Shown: positions 9,001-18,000, counted from the stretch's first letter. The stretch is 64,000 nt of DNA from an uncultured Chloroflexia bacterium (GCA_963755115.1 CAVWIK010000003.1:544706-608705); one strand, 5' to 3'. Program-made: the numbers.

Positions 9001-12000
9001 ACGGGGTGGCCGGGTCGCCCGTCGAGCCGACGACGACGATCGGCGGCGCCCCGGTCCCGGTCGCGGGCGCCGGCGTCCGCTCGGAGGGCACCGACCAGAA
9101 CGCGCACGGGAGGTCGTTGTAGGCCGCGGCGCGGAAGTGCGGCGCGATGCTCTTGAACGTCTTCGCCAGCGCCTCGTACGTGGCGACGTCGGTCGACATC
9201 GGGAAGTCCAGGCACGTGTTGGAGAAGTAGGCGTCGCTCATGTTCGAGTAGGCGCCGTCCGGTTTGCGGCCGCGGAACGGGTCCGAGATCGCGACCAGGA
9301 GCCGGCCGTCCCCGCGTTTCGCCCAGTCCAGCGCCAGGGCCAGCGATGGCCAGCTGCCCCGGTTGTACATCGAGCCGAGCACGGCGGAGAAGGTGAGACC
9401 GGGTCCGACGCGACGTCGGCCCGCATACCGCCGGATGTGGAGCGGCTTCTTCTCGATCTGCGCCATCAGCGAGTCGAAGGCGCGGCGGGTCTTGCCGCCC
9501 TCGTAGAAGGCGCAGCTGCGTCGCGCCGAGCACCAGGCGAAGAACTTCTTGAGCGATGCCTCGAAGGCCTTGGCCTGCCCGGTCCGGAACTGCGTCTCGG
9601 AGAGTTTCGGATCGATCGCGCCGTCGAGGACCATCGCCCGGATACGGTCCGGGAACTTGTCCGCGTACATCGACCCGATGAGCGTCCCGTACGAGAACCC
9701 GAGGTAGGTCAGCTTCTCGTCGCCGAGCGCGGCACGGATCTGGTCGAGGTCCTGGGCGACCGCATCGGTCGAGAGGTACGAGAGGATGTCCGGATTGCGC
9801 GCGGCGCAGGCATCGGCGTACTCGTGCGCCTGGTCGACGAGCGCCTGGAGCTCGTCGGCGTTGTCGGGCGACGGATCGATGTCGGCCACGAGGTCGAGGT
9901 TGTCGATGCAGCGGACCGGGCTGCTCGAGTTGACCCCACGCGGGTCGAACCCGACGATGTCGAAGCGCTCGAGGATGGCCTTCGGGAAGATCGTGTAGCC
10001 GTTGCGGACGAACTCGACGCCCGAGCCGCCCGGACCGCCGGGATTGATGACGAGCGATCCGATGCGCTTCGCCCGGGCCGTCGCGGGCCGCCGGATGAGC
10101 GAGAGGTCGAGCATGCCCGCGGTGACGTCCGCGTAGTCGCGCGGGACCTTGATCGTGGCGCACTGGAACCCCTTCCCGCAGTCGGTCCAGCGTGCCTTGG
10201 CGATCGGCGGGAGCGTCGGCTCCGTGCTGGCATCTGCGGGGGCGCTCGCGCTCGCGCCGGGTGAGCCGCTCGGGGCGGTGGTCGTGCCGGAGGCGCTCGG
10301 CGGCGGCGGCGTCGTCGCCTGGCACGCGACCAGCAGCACCACCGCCAGCACGAGGGCGAGCCGTGGGTGCGGGCGGACGACGCGATCGGGCCAGGCCATG
10401 TGAGCGGCAGGATAGCCGACGCCGGTCCGGCCGACGATCGGCCGAAGGTCAGGGTCGCGCGCGCGCCGCGAGTCCCGCCAGGAGCGAGGCGACGTCGAGA
10501 GGCGTCGGTTCCAGGCCGAGCGCCGCGCCGATCCGCGCGGCGGGCGGCAGCGTGAGCCCGGTCGAGGCCAGGAGGGCGGCTTCGGACGCGCGGAACACGG
10601 TCGCCGGCGTCCCGTCGGCGACGACCTCGCCGAGACGCATCACGACGACCCGTGTGAAGTTCGACGCGGCGAACTCCATGTCGTGGGTGATCGCGACCAC
10701 GGACCGGCCGGCCTCCCGGTAGGCGCGGACCACCGCCTCCACCCGTTCGATCCCGGCCGCGTCCTGCCCGGTCGTCGGCTCGTCGAGGACGAGGATCGCC
10801 GGGTCCATCGCGAGGACGCCGGCCAGCGCGACGAGCTTCCGCCGCGACAGGTCCAGGTCGTACGGGTTCGTCGAGCGCACGTCGGTCAGCCCGACCGCCT
10901 CGAGGCTCGCGGCGACGAGGCCGGCGACCCGGTCCGGCGGCTGTCGCAGGTTCCGCGGGCCGAACGCGACCTCGCGTTCCACGGACCGTTCGAACAGCTG
11001 CTCGTCCGGGTTCTGGAAGACGAACCCGACGACCGCCGCGAGCCGGTCGACGGTCAGGTTTTCGGTCGGCAGGCCATCGAGGAGGACCCGCCCCGCTGCC
11101 GGTCGCAGGAGCCCGTTGAGGTGCTTGGCGAGCGTGGTCTTGCCCGAGCCGTTCTGGCCGAGGATGGCCAGGGCCTCGCCCGGCTCGATCGAGAGCGAGA
11201 CGCCGCGCAGTGCCTCGACGCCGTTCGGATACCGGTGGACCACGTCCTGGACGTCAAGGCGGACCGGGGATCGGTCCCCGGCCGGATGCCAGGCCCTGGG
11301 CTGGGCGCCATCAGGGCGCCGGCGCGCCTCGGCCCGATCCGCGGCGGCATCCCAGACGGAGCCGCTCCCATCGTTCGACGCCGGGCGTCGCGTCTCCAGC
11401 CCCGCGGCGATGGCCGACTCGTCGAACTCGCGGCCGGGTGCCACGCCGGCGAGGACGGCGAGCTGGACGACCGTCGGGGGCCGAAGCCCGATGTCGCGTC
11501 CCGCCATCGCGAGGGCCGCGCCGGGCCGGTCGAGGGCCACGGGCCGGCCGTCCTCGAGCACGAGGCAGCGGTCCATCCGTCCGAGCACGGTCGGGGCGTG
11601 CTCCGCGCACAGGATCGTCGTCCCCGACTGGGCCAGGCCGTCGAGGAGGTCCGCGACCGACGCGGTCCCGGCCGGGTCGAGCTGCGCGGTCGGCTCGTCG
11701 AGCACGAGGATGTCCGTCCCCATCGCGATGATGCTGGCGATGGCGACGCGCTGCTGCTCACCCCCCGAGAGCGAGAACGGCTCGCGATCCGCGAGATGCT
11801 CGATGGCCAGGCGCTCGAGGACCGCGTCGATGCGGGGATCCATCTCCGCCCGCGGGACGCCGAGGTTCTCCAGCCCGAACGCGAGCTCCTCGCGGACCGT
11901 CAGCTTCGACGCCGAGAGCTGGTTCGCGGGGGTCGCGAAGACGATCCCGACGCGGCCGAGCAGCCGGCTGGCCTCGGCCGTGCGCCCGTCCACGCCCGCG

Positions 12001-15000: not shown

Positions 15001-18000
15001 CGCTCGAGCGCGAGCGCGAGGTTCGTGAGCGGGCCGAGCGTCACGAGCAGGATCTCGCCCGGGCGGCCCCGGGCTTCATCGACGATGAGATCCACCCCGT
15101 GCCGCTCGCTGAGCGGCTGGGATGGCGGCGGCAGCACGGCATGCCCGAGGCCCTGCGGTCCGTGCGTCTCGGGCGTGGTCTCGAGCTCGCGGACGAGCGG
15201 GACCTCGCGGCCGATCGCGACCTCGACGTCGGTGCGTCCCGCGAGCTCCAGCACGGCGCGCGTGTTGATTGCGACCTGGCGCGCGTCGATGTTGCCCGAG
15301 ACACAGGTCGCTGCGATGAACTCGGCGTCGGGGGACGCGGCGGCGTACAGCAGAGCCAGGCTGTCGTCGATCCCGGTGTCGACGTCGAGGATGAGCGGGA
15401 TCCGGTCCGGCATGGGTCCGATGCTAGCGGGGCGCCCGGCCGCGCGTCGGCACCGGCCCGCACGGCGCCAGCGGCCCGCGCGTCGGCACCGCCCGCGGCT
15501 GCTGCCCCATCCGATCAGGCCGGCCGGCGCAGCACGATCCGCCACGCCGACCGCCGATCGTCGCCCGGCTCGCCGATCCGGAGGCGGCGGGCCCAGGTCG
15601 ACGGCGTCGCCGCCAGCTCCCCGTCGCCTGCCGGCCGGAACGACTCGAGCTCGAGGCCGGCCGCCGCCCACGCCTCCGCGATGCGGGCGCGACAAGATGC
15701 GTCGAGCGGCGGGAGGTCGCGGCTGTCGCGCGCGATCGCCGATACGAGCGCCTCGACCGAGCCACCGGCGGCCACGAGCGACGCGACGCCCCGGGCGACC
15801 GCCTCGGAGCGGCCGAGCATGCCGTCGAGGAGCGAGCCCCACGGGAGCGTCACCGTCACGAGGTCGGCAAGGCCGGCCAGCTCCGATGGCGGCCGCTCAG
15901 CGGACGCGACCACGAACCGGGCGTTCGGGAGACCGCCCTTCCGGACGGAGCGGGCGGCACGGCGCGATGCCTCGGCCATGGCGGCCGCGCTCGCGTCGAG
16001 ACCGATGCCCAGCGTCGCCGGCTCGGCCCGGGCGCGTGCCACGATCGCCCGGCCGTCGCCGGTGCCCACATCGATGGCAACCCGATCAGCTCGGGCGACC
16101 AGGTCGGTCAGTTAGCCGACGTCCACGTCCATGGACCGCCGACCCATCACGAGTCGCATGGCGCGGAGTCTACACTTCGCCCTCGTGACGTCGACTCCTC
16201 GCGCCCCCGACGCCCTCGACGATCCGGGGCTCGTCGCACCGATCCTCCCGCCCGCGACGATCGGCATCCTCGGCGGCGGCCAGCTCGGGCGGATGCTCGG
16301 CCTCGCGGGGATCGCCATGGGCTACCGGATCGCGGTCCTCGATCCCGATCCGGCGTGCCCGGCGGCCGCGGTCGCCGACGCGGTCATCGTCGGCGCGTAC
16401 GACGACCCGGCGGCCGCCCTGCGCCTCGCGGCGGTGAGCGATGTCGTCACCTACGAGCTGGAGCATGTCGGTGTCGAGCTCGTCGACGCGATCGCCCCGC
16501 TGCGCCCAGTGCGGCCCGGCCGGCAGCCCCTGCTCGTGACCCAGGACCGGATCGCCGAGCGACGCTTCGTGGAGCGCGCCGGGATCGGCGTCGCCCCCTG
16601 GCGCGAGGTCCGCTCGACCGCCGACCTGCGTGCCGCGGCCGCGCCCGATGCCCTCGGGCTGCCGCTTCGACTGAAGCTGACCACGGGTGGGTACGACGGC
16701 CGCGGGCAGATCGCTGTCCGGCTGGCGACCGAGATCGACGGCGCGCTGGCCCGGCTCGGCCAGGTCGGGACCGCGCCCGTGCTGGCCGAGCGCGAGCTCG
16801 ACTTCGAGGCCGAGGTGTCGGTCGTGGTCGCGCGGGCGGTCGACGGGACCGTGGCGACATTCCCGATCGCCCGCAACGTCCACGACGAGGGCATCCTCGT
16901 CGAGACCGTCGCACCGGCCCCGATCGCGGCCGAGGCGGCGGCCGGTGCCGCCGACATCGGCCTCCGGCTCGCCCGCGCGATGGACCTCGTCGGCACCCTC
17001 GCCGCCGAGCTGTTCCTGCTGCGCGACGGCTCGCTGGTCGTGAACGAGCTGGCGCCGCGCGTCCACAACAGCGGTCACTGGACGATCGAGGGCGCGGCGA
17101 CCTCGCAGTTCGAGCAACACATCCGGGCGATCTGCGGGCTGGCCCTCGGGTCGCCGACCGGGCTCGCCCCGAGCGCCATGGTCAACCTGCTCGGGACCGG
17201 GCCGGCCCGCGACGCCCGCCTGCTCGGGGTGGCCGAGGCGCTCGCCGATCCGGGCATCCACCTCCACCTGTACGACAAGCGGCGCGTCTTCGAACGCCGC
17301 AAGATGGGGCACCTCACGGCGCTCGCGCCAGCGGTCGAGGATGCGCGCACGCGTGCATGGGCCGCCCGGGCCGCCCTGACCTGGGCCGATGCCACCAGCG
17401 AGGAGGACCGATGACCGACGCCGCGACCGACACGCCGCTCGTCGGGATCGTCGGCGGAAGCCGTTCGGACTTCCCGACGCTCGAGGCGGCCGTCACCGTG
17501 CTCGCCGAGCTCGGGGTCGCCTCGGAGCTCAAGGTCGTCTCCGCGCATCGCTCGCCCGACCACCTGTTCCGCTACGCGGAGGAGGCCGCCGGCCGCGGGA
17601 TCCGCGTCATCGTCGCCGGTGCGGGCGGGGCCGCCCACCTCCCCGGCATGCTCGCGGCCAAGACGATCCTCCCGGTCATCGGCGTGCCCATCCCGACCCA
17701 GCATCTCGGCGGGATGGATTCCCTGCTCTCGATCGTCCAGATGCCGCGCGGCATCCCAGTGGCGACCGTCGCGATCGGCAACGCGACGAACGCGGGCCTG
17801 CTGGCTGCCGCGATCCTCGCGCTCGGCGACCCGGCACTGGCCCAGCGCCTGGCGGCGTGGCGCGTCCGCCAGACCGAATCGGTGCTCGACGACCCCTCGA
17901 ACGCCGGGTAGCGCCGGTCCGCTGGGCCCTGCCTAGCCCGCCGACACGTCGACCATCACCGGCAAGGCCACGTGCCGGCGCTCGCGAAGATGGAGCGCGA

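Follow-up and report, generated by a model that had tools for sequence, protein, structure and literature searches.

Queuosine is a micronutrient that many bacteria, and eukaryotes without exception, have to scavenge. Few families of queuosine transporters are known (PMC11130926, PMC9881137), and the closest described systems are those of Clostridioides difficile, in which, according to the accounts of Yuan et al. 2019 given in PMC11477304 and PMC11130926, queK (encoding an IunH-family queuosine hydrolase), qrtT and queL form a single operon (CD1682-1684), the transporter works with a shared energy-coupling factor (ECF) core, QrtT imports preQ1, queuine and queuosine, and the two QrtT proteins differ in specificity, one of them taking preQ1 only. 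Dataset S1 of PMC11130926 counts both proteins, QrtT_CD1683 and QrtT_CD3073, as products of C. difficile queuosine genes, and Table S2 of the same paper shows S components of the PF12822 family clustering with the IunH/'QueK' family. In salvage-dependent Chloroflexota, such as Sphaerobacter thermophilus, queuine is released by Qng1 (DUF2419), which prefers queuosine-5'-monophosphate and can act on the monophosphate that results from tRNA decay (PMC9881137); the kinase that phosphorylates imported queuosine is still missing (PMC11130926, PMC9881137). Table S3 of PMC11130926 includes a Limnocylindria genome, Ca. Aquidulcis, in which Qng1 lies beside an ECF T-A-A' cluster. Here we describe an operon in a 64,000-nucleotide stretch of DNA from an uncultured Chloroflexia bacterium (GCA_963755115.1 CAVWIK010000003.1:544706-608705, hereafter the window), in which the gene for an IunH-family N-ribohydrolase is followed by those for a complete ECF transporter with an enlarged S component.

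The operon consists of four closely packed genes on the minus strand, in the order iunH, S component, EcfT and fused EcfAA' (Table 1). The S gene has a GGAGG Shine-Dalgarno sequence ahead of its start, and the GTG start of EcfAA' overlaps the stop codon of EcfT as GTGA. The EcfT translation carries the QARG and EARG coupling-helix motifs (CbiQ family, Ala-Arg-Gly type), and its score of 66.6 against the cobalt-specific model TIGR02454 is below the cutoff of 111.8, as expected because the system is non-cobalt. EcfAA' combines two ABC_tran domains within a single protein, of which the first has the signature LSGGEQQR and the second a degenerate LSRRK. This asymmetry is found in most related loci, where the first signature is canonical (LSGGE/Q) and the second degenerate (LSxRK or LSPxW), implying that one ATP site would be non-canonical across the whole transporter family. 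No gene for an extracytoplasmic binding protein is present among the operon genes, and the S-T-AA' set is classed as a dedicated, group-I-type ECF importer with predicted uptake activity. The G+C content of the window is 70-75%, and the nearest relatives are Chloroflexota genomes assembled from metagenomes, which bear the labels Chloroflexia, Limnocylindrales or Limnocylindria and have the same gene order and 90% identity in the S protein; the host, a soil bacterium, is assigned to a Limnocylindria-like, high-GC lineage of the Chloroflexota and does not belong to the actinobacteria. The translations and family scores confirmed the gene order and the S protein length given in the original prediction, which had been made from the sequence before this analysis, as well as its description of an ECF operon headed by an IunH-family hydrolase; this enzyme is cytoplasmic, as no signal peptide was found.

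As in the C. difficile queK-qrtT-queL operon, an IunH-family gene stands immediately before the gene for a PF12822-type S component. The two systems differ in several respects: the C. difficile proteins use a shared ECF core, whereas a dedicated EcfT and fused EcfAA' accompany the window S component; C. difficile has queL and a preQ1 riboswitch, whereas the window yielded no riboswitch match and queL, which was not searched for, is not counted among its genes; and the C. difficile host belongs to the Bacillota, whereas the window host belongs to the Chloroflexota and its predicted importer has an S component of 404 residues with five extra helices. We propose that the QrtT-related S component would bind a nucleoside outside the cell, that EcfT and the fused EcfAA' ATPase would power its uptake, and that the co-transcribed cytoplasmic hydrolase would split it into base and ribose. 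It is quite probable that the operon imports a nucleoside and cleaves it intracellularly. The likeliest cargo would be queuosine, to which we give a probability of roughly 0.5; queuosine would yield queuine for tRNA modification, and the module would correspond, within the Chloroflexota, to the queK-qrtT pair of C. difficile.

This proposal draws on the genes that accompany the transporter in related genomes (loci designated L001 and onwards; the co-conservation count covers 81 loci and the tally of recurrent partners 169). In about 70 of the 81 loci, an IunH gene immediately precedes S-T-AA' and has the same orientation, and in four more it is displaced by a UvrA-like gene, so that the hydrolase and the transporter are strongly co-conserved and the lack of co-conservation that would have refuted the original prediction was not found. 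The S proteins fall into two subfamilies. Subfamily A, with the motifs GGVTGxG and SDPxDK, comprises every Limnocylindria form, many of the short forms and the window protein itself, while subfamily B, from Anaerolineae, has GGI(T/S)ASG without SDPxDK and is 27-31% identical to the window protein in its C-terminal half. Within subfamily A, the partner is IunH in Limnocylindria and in L120 and L136, and this linkage extends down to 59% hydrolase identity. Of the short-form metagenome loci with sufficient downstream sequence, about half have a gene for a PfkB-family kinase right after AA'. Finally, in one Ardenticatenia lineage the genes for Qng1 and Tgt immediately precede S-T-AA' (L066, L087, L090, L091; Qng1 282-286 bits with PF10343, Tgt 486 bits with TIGR00430), and an independent lineage, L093, has the order S-T-A-A'-Qng1 (Qng1 315 bits). 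Qng1, which is absent from the window, thus takes the place of IunH beside the same transporter subfamily in L066, L091 and L093; its fold is unrelated to that of IunH, and it prefers the monophosphate. The substrate pocket of the Ardenticatenia Tgt is GGSLG (GGSLGRT in L066 and L091), without the Val of the preQ1-type pocket, the types used for comparison being GGLAVG (preQ1) and GG[LS][AS]G (queuine).

Across the 169 loci, the sole recurrent partners are IunH, the PfkB kinase, Qng1, Tgt and ribokinase. The hydrolase, the kinase and Qng1 all act on nucleosides or nucleotides, and the spacing between partner and transporter genes is tight or overlapping. Because a hydrolase, Qng1 (with or without Tgt) or a PfkB kinase fills the same slot in subfamily A, the cargo would be a nucleoside and most likely queuosine, and the simplest reading would be a non-orthologous replacement of the enzyme around one nucleoside cargo. 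Linkage to salvage-type genes, a character of the QrtT group, is present in the window and in these loci (IunH, a candidate QueK, as counted above; Qng1 and/or Tgt in two lineages). The same neighborhoods bear on the alternative that, as presumed for CD3073, the cargo is a queuosine precursor at the level of the base (preQ1, preQ0 or queuine), while the hydrolase recycles internal nucleosides from RNA turnover. Such a role would agree with the preQ1-only specificity of one C. difficile QrtT, which is presumably CD3073 because the other activity is assigned to CD1683, with the use by Qng1 of monophosphate from tRNA decay, and with those subfamily-A loci that have no enzyme partner. However, the neighbor of the transporter is nearly always a nucleoside or nucleotide enzyme in tight or overlapping spacing, for which a nucleoside cargo is the simplest explanation, and base-level import is in our opinion very improbable.

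The S protein gave no significant match in a Pfam search, and its only specific family match is NF045596 ('CD3073 family putative ECF transporter S component'), a model built around a QrtT, since CD3073 is labelled QrtT_CD3073 in PMC11130926. The protein belongs to the S-component superfamily, because FolT sequences from the PDB are matched by the profile of its family (E 1.8e-6), its relatives match PF12822, and the top 18 PDB fold matches of a modelled 199-residue homologue (pLDDT 82.6) are all S components, namely PanT, RibU, ThiT, FolT, BioY and HmpT (probability ~1.0, TM 0.5-0.69). With the full 404-residue model, no PDB entry was significantly similar over the whole chain (best E 0.09; RibU probability 0.85, TM 0.2), owing to the four-helix insertion and the extra N-terminal helix described below. 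Through the short homologue model, the six-helix S fold is common to FolT (5d0y, 5d3m), RibU (5kbw), ThiT (3rlb, 4muu), PanT (6zg3, 4rfs) and BioY (4dve); compared with these solved structures, the window protein adds the insertion and the N-terminal helix, and none of the solved S components matched has an equivalent second membrane domain. The S-component homology put forward in the original prediction is thus sustained, and the search for its family identified NF045596/CD3073 as the nearest one, with a score that fell short of the cutoff.

That distance from the curated family could also be taken to indicate salvage of some other riboside, such as nicotinamide riboside, another tRNA-derived modified nucleoside or a non-queuosine 7-deazapurine nucleoside, which would be imported and then cleaved at its N-ribosidic bond. 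The window S component is only a sub-threshold relative of CD3073, and the specificities of the two C. difficile QrtT proteins already differ from each other. IunH-family enzymes are known to accept varied ribosides. On the other hand, no gene for NAD, thiamine or other cofactor metabolism recurs beside the module in the 169 loci, in which the recurrent partners are limited to those named above, and we regard another riboside as an improbable cargo.

The anatomy of the S component differs from that proposed originally. An identical 404-residue database entry exists, as do hundreds of homologues of 399-419 residues and more than 3800 homologues in all. In a search of 1.8 billion representatives, the more distant relatives were about 200 residues long, 265-300 residues long, or fusion proteins, the last class consisting of S-T fusions and of S-like domains on histidine kinases. 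The ~200-residue relatives are collinear with the window protein except for a gap at residues ~146-308, the 265-300-residue relatives have a shorter, two-helix version of the insertion, and the long forms have an additional single N-terminal helix that is absent from the 200-residue relatives. The window S component is a single core, split after its third helix by a four-helix insertion of ~163 residues and extended by one N-terminal helix. Both parts of this core align with NF045596, whose 174-position model is matched in two pieces about 115 residues apart (residues 50-168 with model positions 1-115, and residues 284-391 with positions 70-172), the N-terminal helix being an addition here as well. 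The idea of a classic N-terminal half followed by an extra membrane half that contains GGVTGGGTD had to be abandoned, because the short forms are collinear with the window protein and carry GGVTGGGTD, which is a motif of the core. GGVTGGGTD and QG..SDPLDK are both invariant in subfamily A, including the 200-residue core forms, and among 25 long forms the mean column identity was 0.91 in the N part and 0.94 in the C part of the core, compared with 0.70 in the insertion and N-terminal helix. An origin by internal duplication (a 'double S') was considered and rejected, since the best result of 16 hhalign comparisons of helix segments (a-b against c-d, P 0.002) is unconvincing for transmembrane segments.

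The AlphaFold (AF2) model of the protein (pLDDT 78.6, pTM 0.81) has helices at residues 18-41, 47-69, 79-106, 114-136, 149-172, 185-213, 221-248, 281-302, 306-335, 343-352 and 357-386, of which the fifth to the eighth are the inserted ones. The loop between core helices 3 and 4 of S components is expected to be extracytoplasmic from their known topology, and because an even number of helices is inserted in it, the insertion should leave the topology of the core unchanged. In the N-terminal tail that precedes the extra helix, Cys8 and Cys16 are conserved in at least 23 of the 25 long forms, and they could form a disulfide if the extra helix puts the tail outside the cell. As for the fusion proteins (P0220, P0255, P0239 and P0248, and also P0198, P0202 and P0141), S-like domains stand N-terminally on histidine kinases with the architecture DUF4118-PAS-HisKA-HATPase, some with receiver domains; S-EcfT fusions are about 470-490 residues long; and one 623-residue protein combines a partial IunH domain with an S domain, either as a genuine fusion or through a frameshift.

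The hydrolase is a group-I enzyme that has kept DVDTGIDD, the catalytic His in IHDP and the Asp cluster, and it is predicted to be cytoplasmic. Its best PDB match is RihA (3g5i, E 4e-49). Against the NCBIfam equivalogs, it scored 211 for RihA (cutoff 433), 194 for UriH (450), 160 for RihC (382) and 136 for RihB (459), all below the cutoffs, and no curated QueK model is included among its NCBIfam matches. The alignment showed two lineage-specific insertions of ~12 and ~28 residues in the subfamily-A hydrolases, which are found neither in RihA nor in the subfamily-B enzymes. With the group-I hydrolase RihA/YbeK of E. coli and its relatives, the window enzyme has in common the fold, the catalytic His and the DxDxxxDD motif for calcium and ribose, and it differs by the two insertions and by its position below every equivalog cutoff.

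The similarity to pyrimidine and non-specific enzymes and the retention of the group-I catalytic His are compatible with general scavenging of ribonucleosides (uridine, inosine, guanosine), in which base and ribose would be used for salvage or as carbon with no link to queuosine. Bulk nucleoside catabolism would also fit the operons of subfamily B, which open with a ribokinase gene and one or two iunH genes. Furthermore, purK-purE lies divergently beside the operon in many Limnocylindria loci, and the PfkB partner is ribokinase-like. However, ECF systems are typically high-affinity importers of micronutrients, and the ribokinase context belongs to subfamily B, which has a different C-terminal half with other motifs and hydrolases that share 36-43% identity with the window enzyme and whose catalytic His is replaced by Asn (INDP). 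The Qng1/Tgt clusters contain the window's own subfamily, and the closest curated S family is that of a queuosine-precursor transporter. General ribonucleoside scavenging is a serious alternative, though one that we consider less likely than queuosine salvage.

Several results weigh against queuosine as the cargo. By the NCBI threshold, the S component is not a member of NF045596 (102.5 bits, cutoff 180), and the short relatives of both subfamilies, with 96-132 bits, are in the same range. The hydrolase scored highest with the RihA and UriH models, albeit below their cutoffs, and no curated model separates it from generic RihA-like enzymes. A tblastn search of the 64-kb window for tgt and qng1 found no homologue of either (queL was not searched), and the window has no match to a preQ1 riboswitch such as that of the C. 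difficile operon. The linkage to Qng1 and Tgt is limited to two lineages, and linkage to Tgt was not found outside the Ardenticatenia lineage, in relatives of 59-69% identity. In several loci of subfamily A the transporter genes stand without any partner enzyme, and in the subfamily-B operons the first gene encodes a bona fide ribokinase (TIGR02152 356-368 bits, cutoff ~300), followed by the one or two IunH genes and S-T-AA'. The suggestion of queuosine salvage was thus strengthened in so far as CD3073 is the only specific S family matched and Qng1 or Qng1-Tgt clusters occur in two lineages, and weakened in so far as the specificity is deduced and the window has neither tgt nor qng1.

If queuosine is the cargo, the different partners might be connected. 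The PfkB kinase encoded after EcfAA' could be the queuosine kinase whose existence is considered in PMC9881137; attempts to class it placed it below all NCBIfam cutoffs and showed it to be only distantly ribokinase-like in the PDB. A more speculative scheme, which as a whole is doubtful, would have one dedicated Chloroflexota family of ECF queuosine importers feeding three interchangeable cytoplasmic routes, namely a QueK-like IunH, Qng1 with a queuine-type Tgt, and a PfkB queuosine kinase making the queuosine-5'-monophosphate that Qng1 prefers, with an 11-helix S component whose second membrane domain would have to work in a manner compatible with toppling.

The region upstream of iunH contains the two-copy direct repeat that was noticed originally, and it proved to be 19 nucleotides long, with one mismatch, a spacing of 36 nucleotides and an exact 15-nucleotide core. 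A conserved regulatory role for the repeat was not substantiated, since the motif does not occur elsewhere in the window beyond chance and the nearest orthologous promoters, those of L002, L003 and L012, lack the repeat, and we rejected it as an operator. Because of this absence from the closest orthologous promoters, it looks like a local duplication rather than a conserved operator. In L015, the orthologous region upstream of iunH contains two copies of another, unrelated direct repeat (ACGAAACGCCGACGG), for which reason local duplications may be common in this GC-rich spacer. A different element is conserved. In 31 of 66 loci, a -10-like TAGCAT box lies no more than 25 nucleotides from the start codon predicted for iunH, other loci having the variants TAGGAT and TACGAT, and boxes of this type are kept 7-9 nucleotides ahead of the start codon across Limnocylindria, which suggests that the operon transcript is leaderless and begins from this box. 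Scans with consensus promoter and terminator models gave no matches. Searches of Rfam found no match in the whole window at the gathering threshold and nothing relevant over positions 14200-16300 with E values up to 5, and riboswitch control was rejected; a leader would not fit in the 7 nucleotides between the conserved box and the ATG.

Several neighboring genes were also noted. Immediately upstream of iunH is a gene for a WarA/NpmA/KamB-like 16S rRNA A1408 N1-methyltransferase of the aminoglycoside-resistance type, which is in the same position in L002, L003, L012, L015, L023, L033 and L067; it matches PF24675 with 145 bits and, with 154 bits, falls short of the WarA model's cutoff of 305. 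Downstream, a TAP-like alpha/beta hydrolase with a lipoprotein-type signal (…LLVAC) begins 49 nucleotides past the EcfAA' stop, with no terminator-like site between it and the operon, and it is kept downstream in L002, L003, L012, L023, L031, L038 and L041. In one sub-lineage (L052, L057, L067 and L074), the operon is split by a gene for a UvrA-like double-ABC protein of ~780 residues with a zinc-finger insert, which lies on the opposite strand between iunH and S. These neighbors, together with a shikimate kinase in L001, were considered as clues to the substrate and dismissed, as they show no functional connection; among them, the methyltransferase and the TAP-like hydrolase recur in relatives. 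In L088, filamentous-phage-like genes (Zot, secretin, Rep_trans) lie immediately upstream of S-T-AA' and look like an integrated element of the inovirus type.

Table 1. Features of the operon, its surroundings and related loci. Coordinates are those of the window unless a related locus is named.
Feature	Coordinates or loci	Strand	Evidence or remark
iunH, IunH-family N-ribohydrolase, 356 aa	14343-15413	-	PF01156, 299 bits
ECF S component, 404 aa, ~11 helices, subfamily A (CD3073/QrtT-related)	13073-14287	-	NF045596, 102.5 bits, in two pieces
N-terminal tail of S with Cys8 and Cys16	14239-14287	-	
Extra N-terminal transmembrane helix of S, residues 18-41	14165-14236	-	missing in 200-aa relatives; helix in model
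S core, N part, residues 42-145, core helices 1-3, motif LPVYLDSIGT...AGPWAG	13853-14164	-	NF045596 model positions 1-115; aligns to short forms
Insertion in S, residues ~146-308, between core helices 3 and 4	13364-13852	-	gap in all ~200-aa relatives
S core, C part, residues 309-404, core helices 4-6, motifs GGVTGGGTD and QGLTSDPLDK	13076-13363	-	NF045596 model positions 70-172
EcfT, 258 aa	12269-13045	-	PF02361, 98.5 bits
Fused EcfA-EcfA' ATPase, 607 aa	10449-12272	-	TIGR04520 390 (cutoff 315); TIGR04521 371 (cutoff 330)
Degenerate second EcfAA' signature, LSRRK	10836-10850	-	
TAGCAT, -10-like box of putative promoter, 7 nt upstream of iunH ATG	15421-15426	-	invariant in 6 aligned promoters
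Direct repeat, proximal 19-nt copy, overlapping the -35 region of the putative promoter	15440-15458	-	position read from sequence
Direct repeat, distal 19-nt copy (core GGTGCCGACGCGCGG)	15476-15494	-	95% identical to proximal copy
16S rRNA A1408 N1-methyltransferase-like gene	15515-16069	-	
TAP-like alpha/beta hydrolase	8834-10399	-	
Qng1-Tgt-S-T-AA' cluster, TtuA-like gene upstream	L066 4280-7594; L091 3778-6588		
S-T-A-A'-Qng1 cluster	L093 1043-5048		
PfkB-family kinase genes	L051 10121-11095; L083 11041-12012; L098, L103, L112, L131, L139, L141, L146, L154, L155, L159, L161, L167, L168		
Subfamily-B ribokinase operons	L044-L048, L053-L055, L060, L062, L068, L071, L073, L075, L076, L078, L079		
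Unrelated direct repeat in orthologous iunH promoter region	L015 5715-5860		
Filamentous-phage-like genes upstream of S-T-AA'	L088 1-6000		

That IunH-family hydrolases are paired with S components of the QrtT type was already known from C. difficile and from the supplementary table of PMC11130926, and none of the papers searched describes an IunH-ECF module in Chloroflexota. What is new here is the self-contained S-T-AA' form in this phylum, the stepwise enlarged S component of ~11 helices, the alternative partners Qng1 and PfkB, and the degenerate second ATP-site signature across the family. The module is near-universal in an abundant, uncultured class of soil and freshwater bacteria. If our interpretation is correct, salvage of the ECF-QrtT type extends outside the Bacillota, in a self-contained four-gene form, and the sister loci put forward a concrete candidate for the missing queuosine kinase; if the cargo is ordinary nucleosides, it would still be an unusual class of cargo for an ECF system. 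The small six-helix S fold tolerates the stepwise gain of two and then four inserted helices, together with an N-terminal helix, and the expanded S subunit thereby represents a natural experiment for the toppling model of ECF transport.

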